A stretch of DNA of 24,000 nucleotides from Bacteroidota bacterium. GTDB lineage: Bacteria > Bacteroidota > Bacteroidia > Palsa-948. Positions 1-19,233 of the stretch are shown piece after piece. The notes under the pieces were generated by a model. That model did not search any database. It saw only the letters and a program-made list of their open reading frames with translations, and was not told the origin of the DNA. The translations under genes were made by a program, and so were the position numbers. How positions within the stretch are numbered: the stretch's first letter is position 1; each line of letters opens with the position of its first letter. The stretch is taken from contig JAHEYK010000006.1 of the NCBI GenBank assembly GCA_023251625.1, positions 26,229-50,228 of the forward strand, written 5' to 3'.

Positions 1-1512
1 TTCACTGTTAAAAACGAAGCTATATATAATGCATTTTCTACAGCGGAGATCACCGACCCGGTTAAAGTACGCCCCTGGAACAACAAGGCAAAGGCGGTGA
101 GGAAGCGTGCTCAGGAGATGTTTGATTATATAGAAAAGATCAAGAATGAGTTGATAGAACACGTAGAAGAAAAGGACATGACTACTGTAAAAGGCAAGAA
201 TGGCAGTGACAGTACAGTGAAGATCGCTTCTAATATTTTTTATATGGAAGGGAAGGACAATAACGTTGTGCCTACACACTATTTCATGGGAGAAGAGGAT
301 AAAGCCACTTCGGGTAATATTGCCGGTCAATTTAAAGAGAAGATTGCCAATTTCAAAAAAGACCTGATAACATATATCCCCGAGAAAGAAAAGAGAAATA
401 TTCACTTAGGATTGGAGATCGATGATGTTTGGTCACCCGGCGAAGGAATGATGATCACTTGGGAATCCAACAATTTCTACCACAACCCGGCGGTAGCCGT
501 AATTGCACTTCTTACAAAAATGCAGAACGATGTAAAAAATGCTGAAACAGATATTATCAGCGCTCTCTATAATCGTATCGATATCAACTCATTCAAGTTT
601 GATACACTTTCTGCACGCGTAAACGCAAATTCAAACTACGTACTGATCGGAGATGAATATAGAGCCGAAGTATTCGTTGCGGGTTTCAGTACCACTTCCA
701 ATCCTCAGATCTGGTTGGGGGACTTTGACAGTATAACCGGAAAACCAATTGGTGCTATTGACTCTACTTCTATTAAAGTTACTAATGGAGTTGGTATTTA
801 TTCTGTTTCTCCTTCAGCGGAAGGAACATCAGATTGGGGCGGAATTATCCGTATGAAAAACCCGGCAGATCCTAAGGCTCCGCCTCGCGTTTTCCCGTTC
901 AAATCACAGTTTAAATCTGCTCGCCCTGCAATTGTTGTATCAGCAGAGAAAATGAACGTACTTTATATAGGACTGGATAACCCTGTATCTGTTTCGGTTC
1001 CTGGTATTGCTGCTGAAGATTTACAGCCCTCTTGTTCAGGAGGAAGCATGTCAGGTTCCAGAGGAAAATACATGGTAAAAGTAGCTCAGTCAATGGCGGG
1101 TAAAGAATGTACGATAAATGTATCTGCAAAAACAAAAACAGGTACTAAATCTATGGGACAGGGAGTTAAATTCCGTGTTAAACCGGTTCCCAATCCTGTT
1201 CCTACCATCTATGGTAAGCGCGGTACTGACGTTATTAAGCAAGGTGAATTACAATTCGTAAAAAGTGTAGTCCCTATGATGGATAACTTCGAGTTTGAGC
1301 TTAAAATACCTGTTGCTTCTTTTGACGTATCCATGAACGTAAACGGTTTGGAGGTTACTGAATCTACAACCGGCGGATCATTAAGTGAAAAACAATCAGC
1401 ACTCATTAAGAAAGCTAAAAAAGGAAATAAGATATATATTGAAAAAGTTAAAGTAATCAAGCCGGGCGGACTAAATACAGAGATCGGCAGTGTTAACTTG
1501 AAGGTAATGTGA
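1..1512 (+). CDS. gldM: Gliding motility / type IX secretion protein GldM (PorM family), 5'-truncated by the window edge
   Basis: Frame 1 is open from nt 1 (FTVKNEAIYNAF... precedes the first listed start at 97); stop TGA at 1510-1512. NPAVAVIALLTKMQNDVKNAETDII and ARPAIVVSAEKMNVLYIGLDNPVSVSVPG match my recollection of Flavobacterium johnsoniae GldM (…LSAWQNDVKKTETDV…, …ATISADKMNVVYRGVVNPISVSFAG…). gldN follows directly, as in gldKLMN operons. Confidence 0.9.
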   Translation, partial: FTVKNEAIYNAFSTAEITDPVKVRPWNNKAKAVRKRAQEMFDYIEKIKNELIEHVEEKDMTTVKGKNGSDSTVKIASNIFYMEGKDNNVVPTHYFMGEEDKATSGNIAGQFKEKIANFKKDLITYIPEKEKRNIHLGLEIDDVWSPGEGMMITWESNNFYHNPAVAVIALLTKMQNDVKNAETDIISALYNRIDINSFKFDTLSARVNANSNYVLIGDEYRAEVFVAGFSTTSNPQIWLGDFDSITGKPIGAIDSTSIKVTNGVGIYSVSPSAEGTSDWGGIIRMKNPADPKAPPRVFPFKSQFKSARPAIVVSAEKMNVLYIGLDNPVSVSVPGIAAEDLQPSCSGGSMSGSRGKYMVKVAQSMAGKECTINVSAKTKTGTKSMGQGVKFRVKPVPNPVPTIYGKRGTDVIKQGELQFVKSVVPMMDNFEFELKIPVASFDVSMNVNGLEVTESTTGGSLSEKQSALIKKAKKGNKIYIEKVKVIKPGGLNTEIGSVNLKVM

Positions 1513-1532
1513 TCATTAAAACCTTTTATACT

Positions 1533-2537
1533 ATGAAAAGAGTATTAACAGCATCGGTTTTGTTCATGGGGTTATTATTTATAATAGCCTCAATGACAAA
1601 TGTTGCAACAGCCAAAGGAGCTATCGGTCCTGTTGGTCCTACCGGAGAGACAGGCCCTCCTGTAGTGCCTACTGCCGGAGGTAATACCACTCCAACTACA
1701 CCTGCTATGGGCGGAGGGGCCGGAGGGATTCTTGAACCCCCGGGAGGAGGAGTATTGGACGGTGTTTATACACCTGAGCACTTACCCTTCAGAAAACCCA
1801 TCCCGTATGTTTACGAAAGGGAAGCAGACATCATGTGGCAAAAAAGGATATGGAGAACCATTGACCTCCGTGAAAAAATAAACCATCCTCTTTATTATCC
1901 GGAGGAAGATCTTGCTAAAAGACCATCATTATGGAGTGTTTTAAGAGCTGGTGTTTATACGGGAAAGATCACCTCGGTATTTGATTTCGATATCTTCACC
2001 ATGGAGTTTGGTGCCTCACTAACTAAGGACGAGATCAGTAAAAAAATGACTCAACCGCTTGTAATGAAAGACTCAATAGGACAACCTCTATTGGATTCTA
2101 CAGGCAACCCGATCATGAGGCCCGACACCATAAAACCAACAGATATAGTGCAGTATTTTTTAAAGGAAGATTGGTTCTTTGAAAAGCAAAGGTCTGTAAT
2201 GGATGTCCGGATAATCGCCATTGCTCCTGTAATTGAAAGCTCTGATATAGCAAGTGGTAAATTTACCTATAAAGCTCTTTTTTGGGTATACTATCCAGCT
2301 ATCAGAAACTATCTATCACAGTTCTACTGTTATAACCCGTATAATGATTCGGAATGGCGAACCTATGATGAGATATTTCATAAACGCTTGTTTGGCAGCT
2401 TTACTTTTATGGAATCCAACGTATATAACCGCTCTATTGCAGCGTACCTTTCAGGACAGGGAATGGAACAACTTTTGGAATCTGAAAGGATCAAAGACGA
2501 TATCTTCAAGTTTGAACACGATATGTGGAACTTCTAA
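1533..2537 (+). CDS. gldN: Gliding motility / T9SS protein GldN (PorN family)
   Basis: ORF 1509-2537. I prefer ATG 1533 (MKRVLTASVLFMGLLFIIASMTNVATA looks like a Sec signal peptide) over the GTG at 1509 that overlaps the gldM stop. The C-terminus MEQLLESERIKDDIFKFEHDMWNF matches the remembered GldN C-terminus (MQLLESERVKEKIRNFEQDMWNY). Position is immediately after gldM. Confidence 0.9.
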   Translation: MKRVLTASVLFMGLLFIIASMTNVATAKGAIGPVGPTGETGPPVVPTAGGNTTPTTPAMGGGAGGILEPPGGGVLDGVYTPEHLPFRKPIPYVYEREADIMWQKRIWRTIDLREKINHPLYYPEEDLAKRPSLWSVLRAGVYTGKITSVFDFDIFTMEFGASLTKDEISKKMTQPLVMKDSIGQPLLDSTGNPIMRPDTIKPTDIVQYFLKEDWFFEKQRSVMDVRIIAIAPVIESSDIASGKFTYKALFWVYYPAIRNYLSQFYCYNPYNDSEWRTYDEIFHKRLFGSFTFMESNVYNRSIAAYLSGQGMEQLLESERIKDDIFKFEHDMWNF

Positions 2538-2590: not shown

Positions 2591-4404
2591 TTAACCTCTT
2601 GGCGGAAAAAACGAACGAGCTCTTTTGCTTTTGATTTCCCTATCACAGCAGCAATTTTTTCTTCAGCGGTTTCCTTTATCTGCGCTACGGATTTGAAGGA
2701 ATTCAAAAGCTTCTTTACTGTTTTATCACTAATTCCTTTTATCTGTTCGAGTTCTGAAACGATTGTTTCGCGCGATCTTCTGCCTCTGTGATGATGTACA
2801 CCAAAACGATGCGCCTCATCCCGCATCTGCTGAATAATCTTTAAGGTCTCCGATTTTTTGTTTAAGTAGAGAGGTATCGAATCTCCGGGATAATAGATCT
2901 CCTCTAGTTTTTTTGCAATTCCAATCATTGCAATTTTACCATCGAGGCCAAGCTTTTCGAGGCTTTTCATAGCGGAACTTAACTGCCCCTTTCCTCCGTC
3001 AATTACGATCAGCTGGGGTAGGGGTTGTTTTTCGTCCAGCATTCGTTTATATCTGCGGTAGATCACCTCTTCCATAGAAGCAAAATCATCAGGGCCTTCA
3101 ACAGTTTTAATATTGAATATGCGATAATCCTTTTTGCTAGGAGTGGAATTTCTAAAAACTACACAGGCGGAAACGGGATGGGACCCCTGAATATTGGAGT
3201 TATCAAAACATTCGACGTGAACAGGCAGCTCTTTCAGCCGCAGGTCATTCATTATCGTATTCATAATCCTATCAGAAGATTTTTCTTTGGTGGAAAAGGC
3301 TTCTCTGCTTTCTTTTTCTTTCCGGTAATAGTCGGCATTACGCTCTGAGAGCTCCAATAGTTTTTTCTTGTCCCCCTTTTGAGGGATCGTAAATTCAACA
3401 TCCGGAAAGAGTACTTCGGGCTGAAATGGGGCTATAATTTCTTTGGTCTCGCTATGGAAGCGCTGACGCAATTCAGTCATAGCAAGCAAGAGCAACTCTT
3501 CATTTGATTCATCCAGCTTTTTTTTCATCTCTATGGTATGCGCTTGTACGATTCCTCCGTTCACCACTTTGAGATAATTTACATAGCCAAATGATCTATC
3601 GGAAATAATGGAGAACACATCCACATCCTCAATGGTAGGACTTACGATCACCGAACGGCTTTGATACTTTTCAAGAGATGTAATTTTTTCTTTTAGCAGC
3701 TGGGCATTTTCGAAATCGTATTTTTCCGAATACTGCCACATCAGTTCTTTCAGCTGTTTTATGACGGATGAAATATGGCCTTTGAGGATCTGTTTTATTT
3801 CAGAAATGCTTTTGTCGTAATCCTCTCCCGATTGAAAGGAGTCGCAGGGGCCTTTGCAGTTCTTCAAATGATACTCCAGGCATACTTTGAATTTCTTCTT
3901 TTCAATATTTTCTTTGGTCAGGTTCAGCGTACAGTTTCTGAGAGGATATAATTTTTTAATAAGATCCAGTATCGTATACATGGTTCTTAGTGAAGTATAA
4001 GGGCCAAAATACTGAGACCCGTCACGAATGAAATTACGGGTTTGGAACACTCGCGGGAAAGGCTCATTCTTCACACAGATCCAGGGGTATGTCTTATCAT
4101 CTTTCAGCGCTACATTGTACCGTGGCTGGTATTTTTTGATGAGATTATTTTCGAGCAGAAGCGCGTCAAGTTCTGTGCTTACAACAATGTATTTTATATC
4201 TGCAATAGAGTGAACGAGGTATAAAAGTTTGCCGTATGAATGGTTCTTGCTGAAATAGGAGGAAACTCTCTTCTTCAGGTTCTTAGCCTTGCCGATGTAT
4301 ATTATTTTGCCGTTCTTGTCAAAGTACTGGTAAACACCGGGATTGTCGGGCAGAGTGTGAACGATATTTAATAGGGCAGGACTGAACTTTTTCTTGTCAC
4401 TCAT
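2575..4404 (-). CDS. uvrC: Excinuclease ABC subunit C (UvrC)
   Basis: 609 aa. N-terminal GIY-YIG module (GVYQYFDKNGKIIYIGKAKNLKKRVSSYF), central UvrC regions, and a C-terminal helix-hairpin-helix region (SELEQIKGISDKTVKKLLNSFKSV). Length and domain order are typical of UvrC. The start ATG overlaps the upstream stop (ATGA at 4401-4404). Confidence 0.97.
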   Translation of the reverse strand: MSDKKKFSPALLNIVHTLPDNPGVYQYFDKNGKIIYIGKAKNLKKRVSSYFSKNHSYGKLLYLVHSIADIKYIVVSTELDALLLENNLIKKYQPRYNVALKDDKTYPWICVKNEPFPRVFQTRNFIRDGSQYFGPYTSLRTMYTILDLIKKLYPLRNCTLNLTKENIEKKKFKVCLEYHLKNCKGPCDSFQSGEDYDKSISEIKQILKGHISSVIKQLKELMWQYSEKYDFENAQLLKEKITSLEKYQSRSVIVSPTIEDVDVFSIISDRSFGYVNYLKVVNGGIVQAHTIEMKKKLDESNEELLLLAMTELRQRFHSETKEIIAPFQPEVLFPDVEFTIPQKGDKKKLLELSERNADYYRKEKESREAFSTKEKSSDRIMNTIMNDLRLKELPVHVECFDNSNIQGSHPVSACVVFRNSTPSKKDYRIFNIKTVEGPDDFASMEEVIYRRYKRMLDEKQPLPQLIVIDGGKGQLSSAMKSLEKLGLDGKIAMIGIAKKLEEIYYPGDSIPLYLNKKSETLKIIQQMRDEAHRFGVHHHRGRRSRETIVSELEQIKGISDKTVKKLLNSFKSVAQIKETAEEKIAAVIGKSKAKELVRFFRQEVKTKKS

Positions 4405-5111
4405 TGCTGTTTTAGAGAATCGGATTTTATTACAGCAGTGCTATCTGTTTTTGGGGACTTATTTTTTTTCCTTTTACTGTTCTTTTTGGGTGCAGGTGCA
4501 GTTTTATTTGCTGTGTCAGGTACTACCACCGGAGGCGGTACTTCTTTAGTCACTTCATGAATAGGCGGTATCGTAGCAGTATCTGCAGGAAGAGGTTTTG
4601 TAAGGTCAGCTTTCAGAGAATCGCGCAGTGCATTACGTTTTTTTCGTTTATCCTGCTTTTGTACATCAGTTAATTTTTTTATGAAACTTGTATCAGAAAC
4701 CGGAACAGCCACGGAGTCAATTTTTTTTATTGTCTTGGGAAGAAGAGAGGAATCAATGGCTGCAACTGTAGTTTTCGGGGGAGTGATGGAATCTTTCACT
4801 TCAACTTTATGCGTATCAATTACGTTGAAGGAGTTTTGGGCAGGAGCAACGGTTTCTTCCGCGGGGTCAGGGGGTAATGATGAATAGTAGCTTGCAATTT
4901 TATAAATTCCAAAAACAAGGAGTAAAATACCTGCCACGGCAGCTCCGATAAATATGGTTTTTCTGTCTACTCCTACGGAGATAGATTTTTGCTCATGTCG
5001 GAGCAATACCTCTACTTCGCTCCACTCCACGGCAGGCAAATTTGTATCAGGAGCTTTTAACGCATCAACGATGAACCCATCCAGGGGAGAATTTGCAGGC
5101 GATGTTTTCAT
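4401..5111 (-). CDS. Single-pass membrane protein, putative anti-sigma partner of the upstream ECF sigma factor
   Basis: 236 aa. ~52-aa hydrophilic N-terminus, one TM helix (IFIGAAVAGILLLVFGIYKIASYY), then a Pro/Lys-rich low-complexity tail. ATGA overlaps at both ends (5108-5111 with the sigma gene, 4401-4404 with uvrC). Function is inferred from position and topology only; I see no recognisable anti-sigma (zf-HC2) motif. Confidence 0.5.
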   Translation of the reverse strand: MKTSPANSPLDGFIVDALKAPDTNLPAVEWSEVEVLLRHEQKSISVGVDRKTIFIGAAVAGILLLVFGIYKIASYYSSLPPDPAEETVAPAQNSFNVIDTHKVEVKDSITPPKTTVAAIDSSLLPKTIKKIDSVAVPVSDTSFIKKLTDVQKQDKRKKRNALRDSLKADLTKPLPADTATIPPIHEVTKEVPPPVVVPDTANKTAPAPKKNSKRKKNKSPKTDSTAVIKSDSLKQQ

Positions 5112-5698
5112 GCCGGTTGTTTGGGGATTGCCTTCGACAGGGATTTTCGCAGATTGAATTTGGCTTTTGATAAACTATCCTTGGAAGTATATTCGCTGAT
5201 ATCAAGCAGTTTAGATATTTCCGCATGAGTGTAGCCATCCAGTTCATGAAGATTATAGATCACCCGGTAAGAGGGAGTTAGCTGATGCAAGGCATCAACG
5301 ATCATCTTCTTATCGGCATGTTTCATGATCTGTTCATCAGATATTTCAGCACCGGTTTGTTTTTCCAGATCACGTATGCTTACCGTGCTGCTCACAAAAT
5401 ATTCTTTTTTATTGGCGTGCATGTGCCGTACAGCGGAGGATATGATCTCTTTTTTTATCCACTCTTCCAGGGGAATAGGAGGGGAATCTTTAGTTCTTTT
5501 GGCATTAGCATCTGCATAATTCCGGAAGCCATTAAAAACACTTTTGAAACCGTCTAAAAGAATTGCTTTTGCTTCTTGCTGGCTTTTTGCATAGCGAATG
5601 CAGATATGCATCATCTTTCGAAAATGAATATCGTACAATTCACGTTGGCTGGCATGTTCATACCTCAGGCAACCGCGTATGATCTCTTCTTCGCTCAT
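5108..5698 (-). CDS. ECF-type RNA polymerase sigma-70 family factor
   Basis: 196 aa. Region-2-like N-terminus (RELYDIHFRKMMHICIRYAKSQQEAKAILLDGF) and a region-4 HTH (YRVIYNLHELDGYTHAEISKLLDISEYTSKDSLSKAKFNLRKSL). Clear paralogue of the sigma gene at 6919-7452. Confidence 0.85.
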   Translation of the reverse strand: MSEEEIIRGCLRYEHASQRELYDIHFRKMMHICIRYAKSQQEAKAILLDGFKSVFNGFRNYADANAKRTKDSPPIPLEEWIKKEIISSAVRHMHANKKEYFVSSTVSIRDLEKQTGAEISDEQIMKHADKKMIVDALHQLTPSYRVIYNLHELDGYTHAEISKLLDISEYTSKDSLSKAKFNLRKSLSKAIPKQPA

Positions 5699-5723: not shown

Positions 5724-5761
5724 AAAAAATAAACCCCCGCGAATAATATCGAAGGGGTTTC
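5724..5761 (-). terminator. Rho-independent terminator after the 5795-6922 gene
   Basis: On the - strand: AAACCCC (5761-5755) / GGGGTTT (5738-5732) stem, followed by a T7 run (plus-strand A7 at 5724-5730). It lies 34 nt after the stop at 5795. Confidence 0.6.
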
Positions 5762-5794
5762 CCCGGTGCTGAAATTTACCGGTTCAGTTCTATT

Positions 5795-6922
5795 TTATTC
5801 ACTAGCTCTCTTTAGAGTTACAGATCCACGGAGGGGGTGAGCTACGCCATCAATCCCGATCGCCTGGCCCGTGTAGAAGTATACTCCCTGAGGGGCGTCA
5901 TCTCCGTTCATTTTCTTGCCATTCCATACTCCGTCAACAGTAGTTAATCTATTCACCGTATTTCCGTTAACATCGGCTATAGCAACATCGATGGAGGCGA
6001 TACCTTTCATCACGAAGAAAAAGTCATCGTTTTGTCTGTCGCCATTGGGAGAAAAGACATTGGGAGAGTACATGATCTCTGAAAGGGGCCTTACCTGAAT
6101 GGTTATTTTATCGGATGTGCTGCCTGTTGAATTTTTTGCCACCAGTCTTACTACATATTCTCCGGGTTTTTCAAATGTGTGAACAGCTATATTTTCTCTT
6201 GAGGTGGAACCATCTCCAAAATCCCAGTTCAATGTTGAAGCAACTCCCTGATTGCTGAAGTTCACTGTAAGAGGCACATCACCCGATTCAGTACTGGCCA
6301 AAATATTTGCTGTTGGCGCTTGCTCGGGAGCCGGATTATTGGACGATGATCTATCCTTAACAGGGCTTACATTAGGGTTCTGCGTGTGTGCGCCCCGCAG
6401 CATTCCGCTATCATCATGTGATGCGTTTCCGTATTTATGCGCCTCGGGTTGTGCGGAGGTCTCATTATTTTCTATAGGAGAAGCATCCGTCCTGGATTCA
6501 TCCCGTATGGCAACGGAGGAAGCTTGTGTTTGTTGAGGACTTGTATATACAGCATTGTTGGCAGAGGTTGCTTCTTTTTGTTCCGGGGTGTTGTTAGGTG
6601 TTCCGGATGTTTGATTTTCAGCAGTAATATTTTGAGAAGCATTTGTTGCCGGTGCTGAAATTTGCTCCGGTTTATTTTGAGCAGTCAGAACAGCTTCGTT
6701 ATGCGCAGAACTGAAATACCAAAGACTTCCCGCTACAATTGCTACAGAGGCTGCTCCAGCAATAATTTTTCCCATAGTGATTTTAGCGACTGTAGAGGCA
6801 GATCCTCCGGAGAGTGATTTAATTCCGCTTTGAACATTTGCCCATGCATTCGGATTCACATCCGCTTCAAAGTGCTCGAACGTTTCCTTAAATAATTTCT
6901 CTATGTTGTCGCTGTTCTTCAT
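5795..6922 (-). CDS. Anti-sigma-like membrane protein with a PKD domain and a T9SS type-B C-terminal sorting domain
   Basis: 375 aa. Hydrophilic N-terminus (aa 1-47), TM helix (IIAGAASVAIVAGSLWYF, ~nt 6713-6781), and a Q/N/S/T/P-rich spacer. PKD domain (PLTVNFSNQG…LNWDFGDGS…HTFEKPGEYVVRL, ~6092-6310). C-terminal gliding-motility-associated/T9SS type-B domain (NVFSPNGDRQNDDFFF…WNGK…GVYFY…, ~5807-6070). The start overlaps the sigma stop (ATGA at 6919-6922). Confidence 0.8.
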   Translation of the reverse strand: MKNSDNIEKLFKETFEHFEADVNPNAWANVQSGIKSLSGGSASTVAKITMGKIIAGAASVAIVAGSLWYFSSAHNEAVLTAQNKPEQISAPATNASQNITAENQTSGTPNNTPEQKEATSANNAVYTSPQQTQASSVAIRDESRTDASPIENNETSAQPEAHKYGNASHDDSGMLRGAHTQNPNVSPVKDRSSSNNPAPEQAPTANILASTESGDVPLTVNFSNQGVASTLNWDFGDGSTSRENIAVHTFEKPGEYVVRLVAKNSTGSTSDKITIQVRPLSEIMYSPNVFSPNGDRQNDDFFFVMKGIASIDVAIADVNGNTVNRLTTVDGVWNGKKMNGDDAPQGVYFYTGQAIGIDGVAHPLRGSVTLKRASE

Positions 6923-7452
6923 GATACTTTTTCAGCCTGAAGCATATTTTGTAAATGTGCCTTTGCTCTTGAATATTGTGATTTGGATGTTCCTTCAGTG
7001 ATACCCAACTGTTCTGCTATCTCTTTATGTGAATAACCTTCTATGGCATACATATTAAATACGGTGCGGAATCCCATGGGTAACTGTTGTATCATTTTCA
7101 AAAGATCTTTTTCGTTCATGCTCTCGCCCACATGAGAGTTCCCCGGTATCACATATTTAGCATCGTCTATATCTATGTTCATTTTCATTGCTTTGTTCTT
7201 CCGCAGGTAGGTAAGAGATTCATTCACCATTATTTTCCGTATCCATCCTTCCAGCGAACCTGTACCCCTGAAAGTCTCTATTTTATCAAATACCCTAATA
7301 AACCCATTTTGCATCATGTCTTCAGCTTCTTCGGTTCTTTCAGCGTACCTGAGGCAAACCCCCATCATTTTTCTGCAAAATCTATCAAATAACAGCTTTT
7401 GAGCAGCCGGATTGCCTGAAATGCAGCCTTTAACCAATTCTTCATCTGTCAT
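6919..7452 (-). CDS. ECF-type RNA polymerase sigma-70 family factor
   Basis: 177 aa. Region 2 (AQKLLFDRFCRKMMGVCLRYAERTEEAEDMMQNGFIRVF) and region 4 (FRTVFNMYAIEGYSHKEIAEQLGITEGTSKSQYSRAKAHLQ). Size is typical of ECF sigmas. Confidence 0.9.
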   Translation of the reverse strand: MTDEELVKGCISGNPAAQKLLFDRFCRKMMGVCLRYAERTEEAEDMMQNGFIRVFDKIETFRGTGSLEGWIRKIMVNESLTYLRKNKAMKMNIDIDDAKYVIPGNSHVGESMNEKDLLKMIQQLPMGFRTVFNMYAIEGYSHKEIAEQLGITEGTSKSQYSRAKAHLQNMLQAEKVS

Positions 7453-7626
7453 CCTGCTCTTTTATTTAGATGCATTTAACGTCCAAATGGTTGCTTTATA
7501 TAGCTCTATTTTGGGGAATTGGAAGCGACCAAAATTGAGCTTTTTTTTGCATTTTTTAGACCATAAGTGATTAATTGTCAAAGATATAATTTATGTTAAA
7601 AAGATTCAAAAAAAGCAATATAAAAT

Positions 7627-7698: not shown

Positions 7699-8688
7699 AT
7701 GAAAGTAGCAATTGTAGGAGCCACAGGATTAGTTGGAAGCGTAATGGTAAAGGTTCTTGAAGAAAGGACTTTCCGTGTAACAGAATTTTTTCCGGTAGCA
7801 TCAAAACGCTCCGTTGGAAGAGATGTAAGTTTTCGCGGCAGAACATATAAGGTAATTGGCATGGACGAAGCGATAGCAGCAAAGCCAAACATTGTTTTGT
7901 TCTCGGCAGGTTCTGCAACTTCTATGGAGTGGGCGCACAAGTTTGCCGCTGCGGGTGCTGTGGTGATCGATAATTCTTCGGCATGGAGAATGCATCCCGA
8001 TATTAAATTGATCATTCCGGAGATCAACGCAGGCCAGATACGTAAAAAAGACCGCATCATAGCAAATCCGAACTGTTCAACCATTCAGATGCTGATGCCT
8101 TTGTATCCGCTGTATAAAAAATACGGCATCTCCCGCATTGTTGTTTCTACTTACCAGGCAGTAACCGGAACAGGCATGAGGGCCGTTGAACAACTGATGA
8201 ACGAACGTAAAAATATTAAATCAGAACCGGTTTATCCTTATCCGATCGATCTGAATCTGATCCCTCACATCGCCGATTTCAACGAAGAAGGATATACGAA
8301 AGAAGAAATGAAAATGACAGAGGAGACACAAAAAATATTTGATGATAAGAAAGTAAAGGTCACAGCAACCTGTGTGCGTGTTCCTGTTGTAGGGGGCCAC
8401 AGCGAATCGGTGAACATAGAACTGAAAAAAGATTTTAAGATCGAAGACGTGCGCAGAATACTTTCCGATACAAAGGGCGTTGTATTGCAGGATGATTTCC
8501 GCAACAATAAATATCCTATGCCTATGTTTGTTCAAGGCAAGGACGATGTTTTTGTAGGACGTATCCGCCGGGATAACTCTCAGGCGAAAACCCTCAACAT
8601 GTGGATCGTAGCTGACAATCTGCGCAAAGGTGCTGCCACTAATGCAGTTCAGATCGCAGAGTACATGGTTGCGAAAAAACTCATTTAA
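7699..8688 (+). CDS. asd: Aspartate-semialdehyde dehydrogenase
   Basis: 329 aa. N-terminal Rossmann motif MKVAIVGATGLVGSVM, active-site region IIANPNCSTIQM, and C-terminal VADNLRKGAATNAVQIAE; all are characteristic of Asd. Confidence 0.97.
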   Translation: MKVAIVGATGLVGSVMVKVLEERTFRVTEFFPVASKRSVGRDVSFRGRTYKVIGMDEAIAAKPNIVLFSAGSATSMEWAHKFAAAGAVVIDNSSAWRMHPDIKLIIPEINAGQIRKKDRIIANPNCSTIQMLMPLYPLYKKYGISRIVVSTYQAVTGTGMRAVEQLMNERKNIKSEPVYPYPIDLNLIPHIADFNEEGYTKEEMKMTEETQKIFDDKKVKVTATCVRVPVVGGHSESVNIELKKDFKIEDVRRILSDTKGVVLQDDFRNNKYPMPMFVQGKDDVFVGRIRRDNSQAKTLNMWIVADNLRKGAATNAVQIAEYMVAKKLI

Positions 8689-12915: not shown

Positions 12916-14055
12916 TCACTTTTTATTCTGGGCCGAAGAATCAACAAAATCCTTTAAGTAGAAAGGCTCGAAGTAAGCCACATCTTCAATTTTTTTCTCG
13001 GTAAAACATCTTTCAGCAAGAGGAACCATGAATTTTGCCGAGGGATGAATATCATCTATGAAAACTGCATTCGGATGAGAAATTATTTGTTTACATTTTG
13101 ATGCACCATCTCCAAAGAAGAGTATTTTGTTTTTCTGCAGCAGATCTGTAAATGAATTTTCGTTAATTATTTCCGCAGAAGTTTTTTTTATTTCATTCAG
13201 CTGTTCATCGTAAATAGCGCAATAGACCTCCATGCGTCTAGCATCTATCATAGGACAAAACAATTTTTTAGTTTCTTTCGCCCCACCCCCTTCCCCTCCC
13301 CTCAAGGGAGGGGGGAATTTTGATTCAAGAATAGTTTTTATTTGAGAGACAACCAAATAAATATCATCGTACACTTCTTCGTTTGTAAACCGCAATACAG
13401 AAAATCTTTTATCTCCTATAATCTCTTCTCTTAGTTTATCCTCTTCCTTCCTAAACTTATGAATCGTTCCATCAAGTTCAATTACTAATTGTTTTTCTAA
13501 ACAGACAAAATCACAAATAAATTTATCAATAGCATGTTGACGCCTTATTTTATATCCGGTTTTTTTATTACGCAATTTTTCCCAAAGCAATTCTTCTGCT
13601 TTTGTAGGAGCTTTTCTCATTTCTCGGCTATATTCTTTCAATCCATCCCATATTTTTCGTTTAGCTGTGTGGTAAATGGGACTGCTCCCCTCTCCTTGAG
13701 GAGAGGGGTTAGGGGAGAGGCGATTCTCCAAAGAATTTCGGATTTGCCCAGCCGCCATCGCCTCCAGGGAGTTGATCGCGATCAAGGGTTTGTCAAGCGC
13801 ATAACACAAACCTTTTGCAGTGGAGACTCCAATCCTCAATCCTGTAAATGAACCGGGACCCTTGCTTACGGCAATTGCATCTATATTCTGCAAATGGATC
13901 TTTGCCTGATTACAAACATCCTCAATGTAAAGGGTAAGGTTTTCGGAGTGGGAATATTGCTCGTCAATTGATTCTTTCAATGCCAGAAGTTTTCCATTCT
14001 TCCCTAACGCAACAGAACAAGCTTTGGTGGAAGTTTCTAAACAGAGAGTAGTCAT
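12916..14055 (-). CDS. tsaB: tRNA threonylcarbamoyladenosine (t6A) biosynthesis protein TsaB (YeaZ) carrying an in-frame ~147-aa DUF559 endonuclease-domain insertion
   Basis: aa 1-111 (LETSTKACSVAL…SKGPGSFTGLRIGVSTAKGL…) and aa 262-379 (…LFCPMIDARRMEVYCAIYDE…) align by eye to E. coli YeaZ (…[20 protein letters not shown]… / …VLAAIDARMGEVYWAEY…). Together they give the normal ~229 aa. The intervening segment is foreign (see the mobile_element feature). The reading frame is uninterrupted. Confidence 0.85.
   Translation of the reverse strand: MTTLCLETSTKACSVALGKNGKLLALKESIDEQYSHSENLTLYIEDVCNQAKIHLQNIDAIAVSKGPGSFTGLRIGVSTAKGLCYALDKPLIAINSLEAMAAGQIRNSLENRLSPNPSPQGEGSSPIYHTAKRKIWDGLKEYSREMRKAPTKAEELLWEKLRNKKTGYKIRRQHAIDKFICDFVCLEKQLVIELDGTIHKFRKEEDKLREEIIGDKRFSVLRFTNEEVYDDIYLVVSQIKTILESKFPPPLRGGEGGGAKETKKLFCPMIDARRMEVYCAIYDEQLNEIKKTSAEIINENSFTDLLQKNKILFFGDGASKCKQIISHPNAVFIDDIHPSAKFMVPLAERCFTEKKIEDVAYFEPFYLKDFVDSSAQNKK
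13281..13720 (-). mobile_element. DUF559 (Vsr-like PD-(D/E)xK endonuclease) cassette with ~35-nt GC-rich hairpin-containing imperfect terminal inverted repeats, inserted in frame in tsaB
   Basis: The core (about 13321-13674) encodes REMRKAPTKAEELLWEKLRNKKTGYKIRRQHAIDKFICDFVCLEKQLVIELDGTIHKF…FSVLRFTNEEV, the DUF559 pattern as I remember it from YcjD-like proteins. Ends: 13281-13315 CCCCACCCCCTTCCCCTCCCCTCAAGGGAGGGGGG, and the reverse complement of 13686-13720, CCTCTCCCCTAACCCCTCTCCTCAAGGAGAGGGGAG. They match at 25/35 positions in my hand alignment. Each end holds a perfect hairpin (13293-13313 and 13687-13708). The core is AT-rich and the ends are GC-rich. Exact boundaries are uncertain by a few nt. 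Confidence 0.6.
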
Positions 14056-14147: not shown

Positions 14148-15521
14148 TTATTCTTTCTTCCAGCTCTTTACAATATCCGCTTTGTCGGATTTTTTCACTT
14201 CCATTCCGCTTTTCAGAAGTTTTGAAACTGCGCTGTATGGACCATTCACCACTTCGTCACCTTCTTTTAGGCCTTCGGTTATTTCAATGGCTATGTTATC
14301 CTGAATGCCCGTCTTTACTTTTTGCAGGCGTACTTTTCCGTTGTCATACACAAAAACACATTCCTGAGGTTTAAAATCTTTTGGCTTGTTGTTCATTTCT
14401 ATCTGCTTTTGTTTTTCATCCACCACTTTGGTATCGTAATCATCCCTGTTCTTTTTCTTTTCATCTTTATTGATAGCGGAATCACTGCGTGTTGTCACTG
14501 CCTGAATGGGGAGCGAAAGTGCATTCAACACGCTTTTGGTATGTATATCAACCGTTGCAGACATACCCGGACGGAACGGGGAGAGGTTAGGATTTTTGGG
14601 GTCCATCAGATCTTTGTAAGAATCCTGAAGGATACGAATCTTCACCGAAAAATTTGTCACCTGATCTGCCATGACCCCTACGGTATTTGCAGAATTGGCA
14701 ATTTCGGTCACTATGCCTTTGAATTTACGCTCCATGTACGCATCGGCTTGTATATCGGCAGTATCACCCATATGCACCCTCACAATGTCATTTTCATTCA
14801 CATCCACACTTACTTCCATTTCGTTGAGATTAGCGAGTATCATGATCTCGGTTCCTTCCATCATGTTTGTTCCAACCACGCGTTCGCCTTTTTCTTTGCT
14901 GAGTTTGGCAACGGTGCCGCTCACAGGTGCGAAGATCGTTGTCTTGTGCAGATTTTCGGTTGCTTCTTTCTGTGATGCCTGTGCACTGCTAACGTTGAAA
15001 GTAGATGACTTTACTCCTGCCTCGGCCGATTCCACCTGGGCTTTTATAGATTCGTACGATGCTTTTGAATTGTCAAAATCAGCTTGCGAGATAGCCCCCT
15101 GTTCAAATAATTTTTTGCTGCGCTGAAATGCAGCTTCTGCATTGGCGAACTGTGCCTTCATTTGTGACAGCTGCGCTTTGGCTGTTTCAATGCTTGATTG
15201 AGAAGAGCTTACGGCTGCATTGGCGCGATCAACAGCCGACTGGTAAATATCGGGCTTCACTTTTACGATCATATCTCCCTTGTTGATATGGTCGCCTTCC
15301 TTAACGAGGAGCTCGACAATTTCGCCCGACACATCCGAACTTATTTTCAGCTGTACTTCGGGCTGTATCTTTCCGTTGGCAGAAACAGTTTCAATGATCG
15401 TTCTGCGCTGTACTTTTTCAGTGGTTACTTCTGCAGCTCCGCTGTTGGAACAGCTTTTTATCCCAAGTATGGTTACGATAATAATAATGCCGCTTGCAAT
15501 GAGTATAAGTGGTTTTTTCAT
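14148..15521 (-). CDS. Efflux transporter periplasmic adaptor subunit (HlyD/MacA-like membrane fusion protein)
   Basis: 457 aa. N-terminal lipoprotein-like signal (…ILGIKSCSN), a lipoyl-like motif (ISSDVSGEIVELLVKEGDHINKGDMIVKV), long coiled-coil hairpin heptads, and beta-barrel and membrane-proximal regions. It sits directly downstream of tolC. Confidence 0.9.
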   Translation of the reverse strand: MKKPLILIASGIIIIVTILGIKSCSNSGAAEVTTEKVQRRTIIETVSANGKIQPEVQLKISSDVSGEIVELLVKEGDHINKGDMIVKVKPDIYQSAVDRANAAVSSSQSSIETAKAQLSQMKAQFANAEAAFQRSKKLFEQGAISQADFDNSKASYESIKAQVESAEAGVKSSTFNVSSAQASQKEATENLHKTTIFAPVSGTVAKLSKEKGERVVGTNMMEGTEIMILANLNEMEVSVDVNENDIVRVHMGDTADIQADAYMERKFKGIVTEIANSANTVGVMADQVTNFSVKIRILQDSYKDLMDPKNPNLSPFRPGMSATVDIHTKSVLNALSLPIQAVTTRSDSAINKDEKKKNRDDYDTKVVDEKQKQIEMNNKPKDFKPQECVFVYDNGKVRLQKVKTGIQDNIAIEITEGLKEGDEVVNGPYSAVSKLLKSGMEVKKSDKADIVKSWKKE

Positions 15522-15527
15522 TTTAGG

Positions 15528-16967
15528 TTAAAGAGTTATCGGTTTACCCTGATAAAAATCCAGCACCTTCAATTTAAATACATAATCGTATTTGGACTGA
15601 AGCATATCGGATTTTGCTTTTATGAGTTTGTTTTTTGCATCATTAAAATCAGTGGCAGTTACAGCGCCTACGGTGTATTTTTGCTCGGTGTATTTAAATG
15701 ATTCTTCCATGGCATTCACGGCTTTGTGCGATGCCTGAAATTTTTTCAGGGAGGAGGCAGCATCATTAAATGCCTGCTGAATGGTTTTACGCAAATTATC
15801 TTTTTGAAGCTGGAGTGTAAGCACGGCACTTTCCAGGGAGATCTTTGCCCGTGAAATGCTCGCATATACTTGTAAATTATTGAAGAGTGGAACCGTGAGG
15901 TAGAATCCAACACTGCGATTTAGGTTCTGATCGATCTGATCGGAGAAAGGGGTGGTGCTGTAGCCTGCAGTTGAAAAATAAGGAGCTAAAACGGTATCAC
16001 CCGCTGAAGTTAATTCTCCATTTGGTTTAACGCCCTGAAAAGCAGGGAGGGTAGAAAGATGTTTGCTCACTGAAGAATATCCTGTTCCGTATGATGCACT
16101 CAGGGAAAGATGAGGGTACATGCCTGCCCTGGCTATGGAGATACCTCTTTCAGCTCCCTTCAGTTTGAACTCTGCGCTTTTTATTTCAGGCTGGCGTTTG
16201 AGAGCGGATTCATAGACCTGGGAGGAAGTAGCATTCAGCAGAACTTCGGCCGGAGGAGTCAGGTCAGGTTTTTCAATTGAAAAGTTATCGGCAGTATCTA
16301 AATTAAGCATCTGTGTAAGGTTGAGGGAAGAAAGGGCCAGGCTGTTCTCCGCATTCACCACGTTTACTTCTTCCGTTGCCATCTGAGCTTCTATGTCGTA
16401 CAAGTTCCCTTTGGGAAGATTTCCTACTTCCACTAATTTTCGGGTGCGTTCAGCCTGCAATTTTGTTATTCCCGATTGATTACGCGCCACTTCCAGCAAC
16501 TCCTGGGCAAATAGGATCTGCAAATAGGCAGAAGCAATGTTCAAGGAAATATCATTTTGCATCTTCAGTACATCCTGCTGCGATGCAAGCATGTTGTATT
16601 TACTTTGTTTGATCGTATTGAGATTCTGAAATCCGCCAAAGAGCGTAATGCTGGTGCTAAGCGAAAAATTTTGAGAAAGCGACCAATCACCTGTTGTAAA
16701 AGTATTGGTGAATGGGTCTACTTTTTTCCCGTTGTTATAGGAGTGAGATCCGCTGCCGCTCAGGCTGGGTAAAAGTTGCGCCTTGTTCTGAAGCAGGGTT
16801 GCTTCTGAAAGTCGTTCGTTCAGTATATTCTGCTTGACCTGAATATTATTTTTCAGGGCAAACTCAATGCATTGCTGGAGTGTCCAGGGTTTTCCTTTTT
16901 CCTGTGAGAAAGAGCTTCCCGCAGAGCCTAAAAATATAATTCCTATCAGAAAAATAAAAGTTCTCAT
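15528..16967 (-). CDS. tolC: TolC-family outer membrane efflux protein
   Basis: Two-fold repeated alpha-helical/beta-barrel OEP pattern (LQQCIEFALKNNIQVKQ…, ESALKRQPEIKSAEFKLKGAE…). I prefer ATG 16967 (MRTFIFLIGIIFLGSAGSSFSQ signal peptide) to the track start at 17012, which abuts the upstream terminator. Confidence 0.9.
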   Translation of the reverse strand: MRTFIFLIGIIFLGSAGSSFSQEKGKPWTLQQCIEFALKNNIQVKQNILNERLSEATLLQNKAQLLPSLSGSGSHSYNNGKKVDPFTNTFTTGDWSLSQNFSLSTSITLFGGFQNLNTIKQSKYNMLASQQDVLKMQNDISLNIASAYLQILFAQELLEVARNQSGITKLQAERTRKLVEVGNLPKGNLYDIEAQMATEEVNVVNAENSLALSSLNLTQMLNLDTADNFSIEKPDLTPPAEVLLNATSSQVYESALKRQPEIKSAEFKLKGAERGISIARAGMYPHLSLSASYGTGYSSVSKHLSTLPAFQGVKPNGELTSAGDTVLAPYFSTAGYSTTPFSDQIDQNLNRSVGFYLTVPLFNNLQVYASISRAKISLESAVLTLQLQKDNLRKTIQQAFNDAASSLKKFQASHKAVNAMEESFKYTEQKYTVGAVTATDFNDAKNKLIKAKSDMLQSKYDYVFKLKVLDFYQGKPITL

Positions 16968-17014
16968 AACGAGCGTAAATATACAAAAGTTGGAGGCATC
17001 AGTTTTACGCAAAC

Positions 17015-17068: not shown

Positions 17069-19042
17069 TTATTTCTTGGCGTTTCTCAACAATTCAAGAA
17101 AGCCTTTGTATTTACTACCTGCAAATGAGATGATATAATAGTAGGTTCCGTCTTTTGCTTCGGAGCCGCCTTTTGTTTTTCCATCCCAGCAGGCACCGCC
17201 TCCGTTTGATTTATACATCTGGATTCCCCAGCGGTCATATACCTCCAGGCTGAAGCAACTATCCATCACATTACCTATAACGATTTGGCCGTTTACATCC
17301 ACAAAGAAGGGTTTGAAGCAATCATTATGTGTATCATTATTAGGCGTGAACACGTTAGGGGTTTTAAGTGTATTTGTACCGGCAACAAGCACCACCGCTT
17401 TGGTTATAGTGTCAGCACACGGAGTACTGATAGAAATAAGTGTAACGCTGTAAGTGCCGTGATTAATATACAAATGGCTTGGGTTTGTAAGATTAGAAGT
17501 ATCTCCGTTATCTAAAAAGATCCAGTGGTATGCCGATGCAAACTGGCTGGTTTCGGAGAAATCAACTGTAGTGCCGTCACAGGAGTAACGAGGGGTATAC
17601 GTGAAGTCAGAGACCGGTACATGGCCTACCGTAATAGTCTCCACGGTATCTTTTGTACAACCTGCCTGCGAAGTTACCGTGAGGGTTATTGTATGTACAC
17701 CGGGCGGATAAGTGATGGGTGGAGGATTCTGCCCGTTATATGAAGATGGGGTACCTCCGGGAAACTGCCAGTTCCAGGCAACTATACTTCCGCCTGTTAC
17801 CCAGGAGCTATCTTTAACAATTGCACTGCCTGTAGCACAATCAACAGAATAGGTGAATGCAGGGTGCATTACAGTAGGAGACAAATTAAAGATGAGATCA
17901 AAACCGCAGAGACTGATCGCTTGTGTAATGTGTACAGTATCGCTCAACCATTGTGAAGGGTGTGCCACAATGCTGCTGGTGGTTTCTCCGCTCGGAGACC
18001 AAGAGTAGGTAAATGCAGGATCATAAGGTGCAGCAAGCATGATAGAGTCATTACCAACACAAAACTGAGCAGTGCTAACCGCTCCGCAAGAAAAGTCAAG
18101 ATAGGTATAACCAAAATGTCCGCAGCGGGAACAATCGGCCGTAGTACACACCACGGTAACCTGCTGGTTGATGTAAGAAGAAAGATGCACACCCACCATC
18201 GTCCATTGAGAATAATATACAGGCGATGGAAGAGAATTAGAATAAGTGTTGCAATTAACATTGGATAAATTAGAAGTAAGAAATCCTGGGATTCCGGGAC
18301 CCGCCACATAGTGCTGGAAAGAACAAGGGATCGTATCTCCATTCTGATCCAGGATCACGAAATCAAAAAAGGGTTGTTCAGCATTTGTATGCGCAGCAGG
18401 GTTTTCCAGAACGGCCGCATATTGATACACAAAATTTGCATCCCCGGCTTTCACAATAAATTTATAGGTGATGCGCTCGCTTTTAGCCTGAATATTGTTG
18501 TTGCCTAGTTTAATAGAAAAAGGTCCGCCATAAGGAGAGGGCAGGGGAATAGGTTTAACATCTGCACAGGGGTCAGAACCTGAATTTACAATTTGGATTC
18601 TTCCTACGTTGGGTAAAGCCGTAGGCGTAAATGAGTTGGGAGTGCAGTTGCTTGCAACACTTGACCAGCACATCGTATCGCCTTTCCATAATCCAAATAC
18701 ACCTCCGTCCACACCAATACTGTCTCCAACGCAGTTGCTTATATTCACAATTTGGCCTTTGTTGTTTTGGCCAAGAACTATATCGCGGTACCTCATTGCT
18801 TTTTTTCTGCTCTGCTGTCCCTTTTCTTCAAGCCAGTTGTATACTTGATCATCAGTTTTTCCTTCACTTCTCATCTTTGCGATGTCGGGGAGTTCATTTG
18901 CATATTCAGGATTGGCCATAATGAGGGCTAGCCTTTCTTTCGGAGATAATTTCTGTCCGAATGAGTTGAATGCAGAAAATGCAAAAAGGAAAGAAACAAA
19001 GATCAGTTTTTGTGTTTGGGAGAACGAAAGAATTTTTTTCAT
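17069..19042 (-). CDS. Secreted T9SS cargo: unnamed N-terminal domain, two PKD-like domains and a type-B C-terminal sorting domain
   Basis: 657 aa. Signal peptide (LIFVSFLFAFSAFNSFGQ). PKD-like repeats (…WNWQFPGGTPSS…GVHTITLTV…; …YHWIFLDNGDTS…HGTYSVTLI…). C-terminus TPNVFTPNNDTHNDCFKPFF…YDRWG…CWDGKTKGG…DGTYYYII is the gliding-motility-associated (TIGR04131-type) domain. Confidence 0.85.
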   Translation of the reverse strand: MKKILSFSQTQKLIFVSFLFAFSAFNSFGQKLSPKERLALIMANPEYANELPDIAKMRSEGKTDDQVYNWLEEKGQQSRKKAMRYRDIVLGQNNKGQIVNISNCVGDSIGVDGGVFGLWKGDTMCWSSVASNCTPNSFTPTALPNVGRIQIVNSGSDPCADVKPIPLPSPYGGPFSIKLGNNNIQAKSERITYKFIVKAGDANFVYQYAAVLENPAAHTNAEQPFFDFVILDQNGDTIPCSFQHYVAGPGIPGFLTSNLSNVNCNTYSNSLPSPVYYSQWTMVGVHLSSYINQQVTVVCTTADCSRCGHFGYTYLDFSCGAVSTAQFCVGNDSIMLAAPYDPAFTYSWSPSGETTSSIVAHPSQWLSDTVHITQAISLCGFDLIFNLSPTVMHPAFTYSVDCATGSAIVKDSSWVTGGSIVAWNWQFPGGTPSSYNGQNPPPITYPPGVHTITLTVTSQAGCTKDTVETITVGHVPVSDFTYTPRYSCDGTTVDFSETSQFASAYHWIFLDNGDTSNLTNPSHLYINHGTYSVTLISISTPCADTITKAVVLVAGTNTLKTPNVFTPNNDTHNDCFKPFFVDVNGQIVIGNVMDSCFSLEVYDRWGIQMYKSNGGGACWDGKTKGGSEAKDGTYYYIISFAGSKYKGFLELLRNAKK

Positions 19043-19233
19043 ATGCTAAATATTAATGATGTTAATACCTGTTACTTCTTTGAGATGCAAACAGACCATT
19101 TATGGTTGCACGGATGCGCTCAAAAAGAGTGCAACAAAAATAGTATTTATGGTGGAATTTTGTAAAAAAACAACATATTTACTTACCTAACTGAAAAAAT
19201 CAATAAAAATGAGGTAATGGAGAGGTATTCACT

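Follow-up and report, generated by a model that had tools for sequence, protein, structure and literature searches.

A candidate Dma-like anti-sigma factor ending in a type IX secretion type-B domain, and its predicted link to type-B cargo genes

Can a protein that holds a sigma factor at the inner membrane carry the tag of a secretion system at its other end, and would such a protein control the genes for the substrates of that system? This question is raised by two overlapping genes in a 24,000-nt stretch of a Bacteroidota bacterium genome (assembly GCA_023251625.1, contig JAHEYK010000006.1, positions 26,229 to 50,228 of the forward strand), which was analysed at its full length and is referred to here as the window. 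The first gene encodes an extracytoplasmic function (ECF) sigma factor, and the second encodes a 375-aa protein that ends in a PKD domain and a C-terminal domain (CTD) of the type-B kind, which belongs to the type IX system of secretion (T9SS). The explanation that we favour, with modest confidence, is an ECF sigma/anti-sigma pair like that of the Dma ('dual membrane-spanning anti-sigma') family, in which the outer-membrane barrel is replaced by a T9SS type-B tag and which controls genes for type-B cargo. This arrangement probably ties the production of surface adhesins to the secretion machinery.

Modules of the protein encoded behind the sigma gene

The features of the locus, with the position weight matrix abbreviated as PWM and the predicted local distance difference test score of AlphaFold2 as pLDDT, are as follows.

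6919..7452, minus strand: ECF sigma gene, 177 aa (Pfam and TIGR02937 matches)
5795..6922, minus strand: anti-sigma gene, 375 aa, encoding head, transmembrane (TM) helix, disordered tether, PKD domain and type-B CTD
6815..6922, minus strand: head (aa 1-36), predicted to be cytoplasmic and presumed to bind the sigma, NIEKLFKETFEHFEADVNPxxWxNVQSGI (conservation, hhalign)
6713..6769, minus strand: single hydrophobic helix (aa 52-70), KIIAGAASVAIVAGSLWYF, preceded by K52 (alignment and hydropathy scan)
6323..6712, minus strand: low-complexity disordered tether (aa 71-200; AlphaFold2 and composition)
6092..6322, minus strand: PKD (immunoglobulin (Ig)-like) domain (aa 201-277; Pfam PKD_4 55.3 bits, pLDDT >90, Foldseek PKD hits)
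5798..6067, minus strand: CHU_C / T9SS type-B CTD (aa 286-375; Pfam CHU_C and end-to-end alignment with cargo)
7465..7498, minus strand: predicted autoregulatory ECF-type promoter of the sigma/anti-sigma operon, aaaGCAACC-N16-GCATCTaaa (motif/PWM)
5750..5765, minus strand: terminator-like hairpin 3' of the anti-sigma stop codon (consensus scan only)

The 177-aa protein has regions 2 and 4 only, as expected of an ECF sigma factor (Sigma70_r2, 55 bits, and Sigma70_r4_2, 59.6 bits, in Pfam; TIGR02937, 93.7 bits). An earlier note, made from the letters of this DNA alone, had placed the start of the 375-aa gene in the ATGA that ends the sigma gene, and its coordinates hold: the start codon of the open reading frame (ORF) lies inside the ATGA that contains the sigma stop codon, and the two genes thus overlap. 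Given the hairpin that follows the anti-sigma stop codon, the pair would be a bicistronic unit.

The N-terminal 36 residues are better conserved than the PKD domain or the CTD among approximately 50 orthologues, and the orthologue alignment shows no variation at K12, F18, E19 and W27 of the head or at K52, immediately ahead of the helix. Neither Pfam nor NCBIfam models matched the head or aa 1-75 even at E<=1, no PDB sequence matched there, and aa 1-200 were matched by no model of any library searched. The Class I (ZAS/RsrA-like) anti-sigma domain, a four-helix domain of ~80-90 aa (zf-HC2, RskA etc.), was not found; the head is only ~36 aa long, and AlphaFold2 predicts two short helices in it, at aa 7-15 and 24-31.

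A conserved hydrophilic region of 51 residues precedes the hydrophobic segment, and the orthologues have no conserved internal start. Judged from the alignment alone, the protein appears to carry no cleavable N-terminal Sec signal peptide of the kind expected of a T9SS substrate. These observations agree with the hydrophilic N-terminus and single TM helix described in the earlier note, and they support the view that the segment at aa 52-70 would behave as an anchor and not as the start of a signal peptide. The tether that follows comprises ~130 residues rich in S, A, N, T and P. In an AlphaFold2 model built with 33 homologues, the pLDDT was <50 over aa 31-196, save for two isolated residues, and >90 over the PKD domain and the CTD. 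Within the otherwise variable tether, a linear motif, HKYGNASHDDSGMLRG (6392-6439, minus strand; aa 162-177), is kept, also in orthologues that lack the PKD domain, and is a candidate protease site or docking motif.

The reading of the C-terminal half as a PKD domain followed by a type-B CTD likewise found support. CHU_C of Pfam matches aa 287-353 with 39.9 bits against a gathering cutoff of 27, and the domain aligns to its last residue with the CTDs of cargo proteins that bear a signal peptide. Of the model searches that had been suggested, that for PKD was positive, TIGR04131 gave a full-length match discussed below, and those for anti-sigma families found nothing in aa 1-75. A Foldseek search of the AlphaFold2 model against PDB returned generic PKD/Ig matches only, none specific for the CTD; according to the literature, no structure of a type-B CTD has been solved.

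Coupling to the sigma gene and kinship with Dma

The approximately 50 full-length orthologues (38-73% identity) all come from uncultured Bacteroidota, and shorter relatives (~310-320 aa) retain all modules, from the head to the CTD, except the PKD domain. A head-plus-helix profile, run in an exhaustive HMMER search, detected 1547 clusters (50% identity) at E<=0.001, which comprise CHU_C-ending as well as barrel-ending proteins, and 276 clusters at E<=1e-10; a word-indexed search with the head alone returned short fragments only. Among the 111 best full-length matches to the profile, 104 end in CHU_C (best E 7.5e-23) and 63 have a PKD domain, and no outer-membrane barrel model matched the C-terminus of the window protein or of 104 of these 111 relatives. 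The family is thus large, and because no Pfam or NCBIfam model covers its head, its members are annotated merely as 'PKD domain-containing' or 'gliding motility-associated C-terminal domain' proteins.

The earlier note had called for a survey of CTD genes beside ECF sigma genes. A scan of one genome per species with a head pattern gave 80 loci from Flavobacteriales, Crocinitomicaceae, Vicingaceae, Aequorivita, Ulvibacter, Altibacter, Jejudonia, Flagellimonas and further Bacteroidia. In 76 of them, the head gene is preceded by an ORF that phmmer relates to the window sigma (E 1e-34 to 1e-103) and whose end lies -11 to +76 nt from the head gene's start, and the same pairing was seen in independent contig look-ups of three loci (L001, L002 and L003). 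As far as alignment and gene order can tell, this architecture and its coupling to a sigma gene are far beyond chance.

The 78 head proteins obtained from the loci fall mainly into two types, 48 ending in CHU_C and 26 in an outer-membrane beta-barrel (OMP_b-brl or OMP_b-brl_2). In proteins of the barrel type, which are ~480-550 aa long, the head and a single helix are joined by a linker of >200 aa to a barrel that has ...GLSFKF at its end, with a terminal aromatic residue. Their heads are homologous to those of the CTD type (hhalign probability 99%, E 5e-18, residues 1-35), and their profile matches were to Flavobacteriaceae proteins named 'outer membrane beta-barrel protein' by NCBI, the sole kind among the 120 matches listed. 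In predicted architecture, the barrel type matches the definition of Dma. For a member of the Dma family, the cognate sigma would be expected to fall into group ECF21; NCBIfam has no specific model for the sigma factors of either type and gave generic sub-threshold matches only.

The Dma architecture was published in 2024, and the Dma papers do not mention the T9SS (PMC10927553; preprint 10.1101/2025.09.27.678952). In Bacteroides thetaiotaomicron, residues 1-40 of Dma1 fused to glutathione S-transferase pull down the sigma factor Das1, and full-length Dma1 tagged at both ends is found in membranes and spans both of them (PMC10927553); the barrel of Dma1 occurs in outer-membrane vesicles (PMC10927553; preprint 10.1101/2025.09.27.678952; PMC13114119). 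By homology with the heads of Dma-architecture proteins and by analogy with this pulldown, the head of the window protein would bind its sigma. Since this head is conserved, strictly tied to one sigma clade and homologous to heads of the Dma architecture, the 375-aa protein is very probably the cognate anti-sigma factor, as had been supposed from the gene overlap.

Like Dma, the window protein has a short N-terminal head (~35-40 aa; sigma binding is predicted here), a single TM helix followed by a long disordered region, which would form a periplasmic tether, and a gene directly 3' of a Bacteroidota ECF sigma gene; with the barrel proteins of Dma architecture it has in common the homologous head and a promoter motif 5' of the sigma gene. 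In contrast, it ends in a PKD domain and a T9SS type-B CTD, whereas Dma ends in an eight-stranded OMP_b-brl_2 barrel in the outer membrane; its predicted targets are type-B secreted proteins, whereas those of Dma are NigD lipoproteins; and the CTD type, unlike Dma, is found in metagenome-assembled genomes of environmental Bacteroidota. The remark in the earlier note that it knew of no described anti-sigma factor of this architecture therefore needs to be narrowed: head, helix and tether, its first three modules, correspond to those of Dma proteins, and only the T9SS-tag ending appears undescribed, no anti-sigma factor ending in a T9SS CTD having been found in searches of 8 million full texts.

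Promoter motif and type-B cargo genes

In loci of the CTD type, the sequence tGCAACc-N16-GCATCt lies 12-20 nt 5' of the sigma ATG, and in loci of the barrel type acGCAACc-N15-GCATCta lies about 80-90 nt 5' of the sigma start. Of 83 loci, 50 show the exact motif GCAAC-N15-17-GCATC just 5' of the sigma gene, and nearly all have it by PWM. The common motif, GCAACC-N15/16-GCATCT, indicates that the sigma factors of both types have the same predicted promoter specificity and suggests that they form a single clade; because it stands before the sigma gene itself in both types, it also argues for autoregulation of this clade, promoter function being predicted. In the window, the -10 element of the site at 7465-7498 ends ~17 nt 5' of the sigma ATG.

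A PWM built solely from other loci, with 30 shuffles as control, singled out two sites in the window, at 7465-7498 (22.9 bits) and at 19080-19113 (25.8 bits). The third-best site scored 8.0 bits and the shuffle maximum was 13.3, and the exact pattern was matched twice against 0.11 matches expected. The second site precedes a gene for a secreted protein in the following region.

19080..19113, minus strand: second predicted promoter, cgtGCAACC-N16-GCATCTcaa, 37 nt 5' of the cargo gene (best PWM hit)
17069..19042, minus strand: predicted regulon member, a secreted protein of 657 aa (Sec signal peptide, PKD domain twice, type-B CTD of CHU_C)
15528-17012, minus strand: TolC-like (OEP) gene, after a 56-nt gap behind the 657-aa cargo gene
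14148-15521, minus strand: HlyD-like gene, after a 6-nt gap behind the TolC-like gene

The 657-aa protein begins with a typical Sec signal peptide, has the PKD domain twice and matches CHU_C with 65 bits, and it can thus be regarded as an ordinary type-B T9SS substrate. In other genomes, cargo genes stand beside the anti-sigma gene. At six loci (L010, L015, L023, L029, L039 and L044), the anti-sigma gene is followed on its own strand by a gene for a CHU_C protein with SprB repeats, PKD or Ig_7. At 16 more loci, the next gene is an ORF of >900 aa that runs off the fetched DNA, and most of these ORFs begin with a signal peptide; four of five that were sampled had Pfam matches, three of them to the 'CHU_C-associated' Ig_7. 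Altogether, a gene for a large secreted protein lies in the sigma/anti-sigma operon in at least 22 of about 46 loci of the CTD type, six being confirmed as type B and the rest probably so. In the clade of the window (L001, L003-L007 and L084), a second sigma-like gene and a gene for a TM protein take the cargo position. That the predicted regulon and the operon partners of the sigma are type-B cargo genes lends new support to the interpretation given in the earlier note.

Several observations were made in passing on these cargo regions. Because the gaps are just 56 and 6 nt, the TolC-like and HlyD-like genes may share a sigma-dependent transcript with the 657-aa cargo gene; no gene for an inner-membrane transporter adjoins them (14148-17012, minus strand). 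A giant ORF (19234-24000, minus strand; >1588 aa) with Ig_7, PKD and CHU_C, which runs past the end of the window, ends just 5' of the second promoter site, and two type-B cargo genes thus stand in tandem. At L044, a 136-aa protein that is little beyond CHU_C is encoded 3' of the anti-sigma gene (4968-5378, plus strand); its CTD is 47% identical to the anti-sigma CTD of L016, and the protein may have arisen by duplication of the tag, as a free copy. At L039, a second strong match to the promoter motif (8021-8054, plus strand; 29.4 bits) follows the 950-aa CHU_C cargo gene of the operon and stands before a gene that is truncated where the locus ends.

Possible handling of the tail by the T9SS

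The CTDs of the anti-sigma proteins and those of signal-peptide-bearing cargo share PNxFTPNGDGxND, WDGK, GxYxY and a terminal GxxxLxR, in an alignment that reaches the last residue. Functional type-B signals are 150-235 aa long and have five conserved motifs, each of which is needed for secretion (PMC12618676); PKD and CTD together amount to 175 aa, inside this range. Secretion of type-B substrates also requires a PorP/SprF-type shuttle, which is commonly encoded 3', 'orphan' substrates using a distant shared one (PMC12618676).

Core genes of the T9SS are present, namely those for GldM and GldN at 97..2537 (plus strand) of the window and those for GldK, GldL and PorP_SprF on the overlapping contig, L084. 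On this contig, left of the window, the PorP/SprF-family gene (PF11751; 14086-15033, minus strand) lies directly 5' of gldK-gldL-gldM-gldN, in a layout resembling porP-porKLMN of P. gingivalis; it is ~8.5 kb from the anti-sigma gene and is the sole shuttle candidate seen near it. The presence of gldM and gldN close by, to which the earlier note had drawn attention, is therefore real, but their proximity appears incidental, being absent from the orthologous loci L001 and L003. Control of the T9SS machine by the sigma was rejected for this locus: no PWM site on the correct strand lies 5' of porP-gldKLMN, and the best hit nearby (11.5 bits) is on the wrong strand and within the range of the shuffles. 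Since the proximity is not conserved and no sigma promoter precedes porP-gldKLMN, the system looks like a regulator of cargo and not of the machine.

We propose that the 375-aa protein is a single-pass inner-membrane anti-sigma factor with its N-terminus inside, of which the 36-aa head would hold the sigma in the cytoplasm and the ~130-aa disordered tether would cross the periplasm; the contour length of the tether, estimated at ~45 nm, would be enough to reach the outer membrane. Its outer end would be a minimal type-B substrate tail (PKD plus CTD), in place of the self-inserting barrel of Dma. This tail would be captured at the outer membrane by the T9SS translocon and/or a PorP/SprF-type shuttle, and one polypeptide would thus join the secretion site and the cytoplasm. 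A change at the outer end, for instance if the tail is captured or pulled, loses its anchoring or competes with cargo, would then trigger regulated proteolysis in the tether and in the G/A/S-rich helix, whose helix-destabilizing residues would fit a substrate of a site-2 protease. The sigma, once freed, would transcribe its own operon and genes for surface proteins with a type-B CTD. The release of the sigma on engagement with the T9SS is conjecture on our part, and its sign may be either of two: engagement could switch the system on, as a FlgM-like checkpoint, or keep it off, both being compatible with the data.

FlgM, the inhibitor of sigma-28, carries an export signal of the secretion system whose substrates this sigma controls, and the same logic is proposed here. 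Unlike the window protein, FlgM is soluble and is exported wholly via the flagellar type III apparatus, and the two have no sequence or structural relationship; because the inhibitor is tethered to the membrane here, its release would need proteolysis. A T9SS checkpoint of this kind, in which the T9SS or its type-B shuttle treats the tethered anti-sigma factor as a substrate and capture of the CTD, or its pulling through the outer membrane, leads to tether cleavage and sigma release, is put forward tentatively, as possible rather than probable. If it is true, the cell would make giant type-B adhesins only at times, and only in amounts, for which it has free export capacity, and the anti-sigma factor would be the first T9SS substrate kept in the inner membrane, against the rule of a soluble periplasmic intermediate. 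One may then ask if a substrate that is still anchored there can be handled by the T9SS at all.

The most serious alternative, which we nevertheless consider rather unlikely, accepts the pair as genuine and takes the CHU_C-like domain for a periplasmic beta-sandwich sensor or interaction module that is never handled by the T9SS, its cue being a periplasmic or envelope signal unrelated to secretion. Much of what weighs against the explanation favoured here speaks for this alternative. The match to TIGR04131, the T9SS type-B model, covers its full length (aa 286-372) but scores 29 bits, below the NCBI cutoff of 35, which some relatives pass (L016, 36.0). The DRWG of cargo CTDs is absent from most of the aligned anti-sigma CTDs, which have VNGN or KNAN instead, and its loss could mean altered or lost recognition. 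The anti-sigma CTDs are 31-43% identical to each other and 24-36% to cargo CTDs; no PorP/SprF gene adjoins the anti-sigma gene, the downstream gene being a sigma paralogue; and descriptions of T9SS substrates have them pass through the periplasm as soluble intermediates (PMC12618676). Against this stand the other type-B motifs, which are kept across 104 of 111 clusters, with GxxxLxR at the very C-terminus; the long disordered tether, a conserved feature here just as it is in relatives of the barrel type, which extend to the outer membrane; and the operon and promoter link, which is specifically to type-B cargo.

Further points count against a Dma-like pair that carries a working T9SS tag. Because all T9SS effectors are said to have a cleavable Sec signal peptide (PMC12618676), a tethered substrate would be unprecedented. 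The second promoter site is known from one genome only, and a metagenome scan for orthologues of the 657-aa cargo found none. The kinship to the named Dma family is drawn, by comparison of sequences, through the architecture and the Flavobacteriaceae barrel proteins, not through direct alignment to Bt Dma1 or Bf Reo. Finally, the anti-sigma CTD is 50% identical to the CTD of its own operon cargo in L010 and 27-36% elsewhere; mimicry of the cargo's CTD, true only in L010, was rejected as a general rule.

An improbable second alternative is that signal peptidase I cleaves after the helix (SSA|HNE), so that the C-terminal part is an ordinary released T9SS substrate and the head and helix alone act on the sigma, the two halves being made together without mechanical coupling. 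The small residues that follow the helix in most orthologues (FSSA, FASS, FASN) and the short h-region of just ~18 G/A/S-rich residues would suit such cleavage, but a conserved n-region of 51 residues is atypical of a Sec signal peptide, and the relative Dma1 was detected at full length with tags at both ends (PMC10927553). The idea of an ordinary secreted type-B cargo protein with a mis-called start and a coincidental sigma neighbour, prompted by the resemblance of M50-G-K and the following hydrophobic stretch to a signal peptide in this one sequence, is effectively refuted, since M50 is I, V or L in every other aligned orthologue, the 36 residues at the N-terminus are the best-conserved part, a sigma gene adjoins in 76 of 80 loci and the barrel-type proteins have the head in common.

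For the Dma-like pair with a type-B tag, three known systems besides FlgM offer comparison. T9SS type-B substrates (SprB, Fjoh_3952; PMC12618676, PMC9143113) similarly have an Ig-like domain followed by a CHU_C/TIGR04131-type domain, with motifs up to the last residue, in genomes that encode gldKLMN and a PorP/SprF protein; in contrast, the anti-sigma protein has a conserved, predicted cytoplasmic head and a membrane anchor in place of a cleavable signal peptide, and it has no functional passenger domain, no adjacent shuttle gene and mostly no DRWG. The nearest functional precedent is PorA of Porphyromonas gingivalis, a T9SS CTD-bearing surface protein that informs the ECF sigma factor SigP via PorXY (PMC7712824). 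Unlike the present protein, PorA has a signal peptide and a CTD of type A, is a protein separate from the anti-sigma function and acts via a two-component system; it controls genes for T9SS components and is restricted to Porphyromonas (PMC7712824). In FecA/FecR/FecI, an anti-sigma factor of the inner membrane and an ECF sigma factor likewise receive, across the periplasm, the signal of an outer-membrane event, but this takes two proteins, a TonB-dependent transducer and FecR, instead of one tethered polypeptide, and the domains are unrelated.

For the regulation of very large adhesin-like type-B substrates in gliding and environmental Bacteroidota, the present family is a concrete candidate, with a sigma that has a recognizable promoter, an inhibitor that would bear a T9SS tag at its sensing end, and cargo genes in the same operons. 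The Dma principle of one polypeptide reaching from the cytoplasm to the outer membrane would be extended, in that a secretion system, and not a barrel of the protein's own, would bring the outer end into place.

Two further observations concern neighbouring genes. Directly downstream of the anti-sigma gene (4401-5698, minus strand) lies a second tandem pair with an ATGA overlap, encoding a 196-aa sigma paralogue and a 236-aa single-TM protein. The paralogue is 28% identical to the first sigma, Pfam detects only its region 4, and its region 2 has an insertion; the 236-aa protein has a P/K/T-rich tail and no detected domain, and the possibility that it shares the head of the first pair was rejected (hhalign probability 0.3%). 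L001 and L003 keep the order asd - pair 1 - pair 2 - uvrC, and in L004-L007 and L084 the two pairs likewise stand one after the other, pair 1 first. In addition, a TsaB/TsaD-like gene (12916-14055, minus strand) combines a Pfam TsaD match (aa 35-103) with a DUF559 endonuclease-like domain (aa 139-243); because the syntenic gene of L003 (251 aa) has the TsaD match only, this gene may hold an insertion or fusion.

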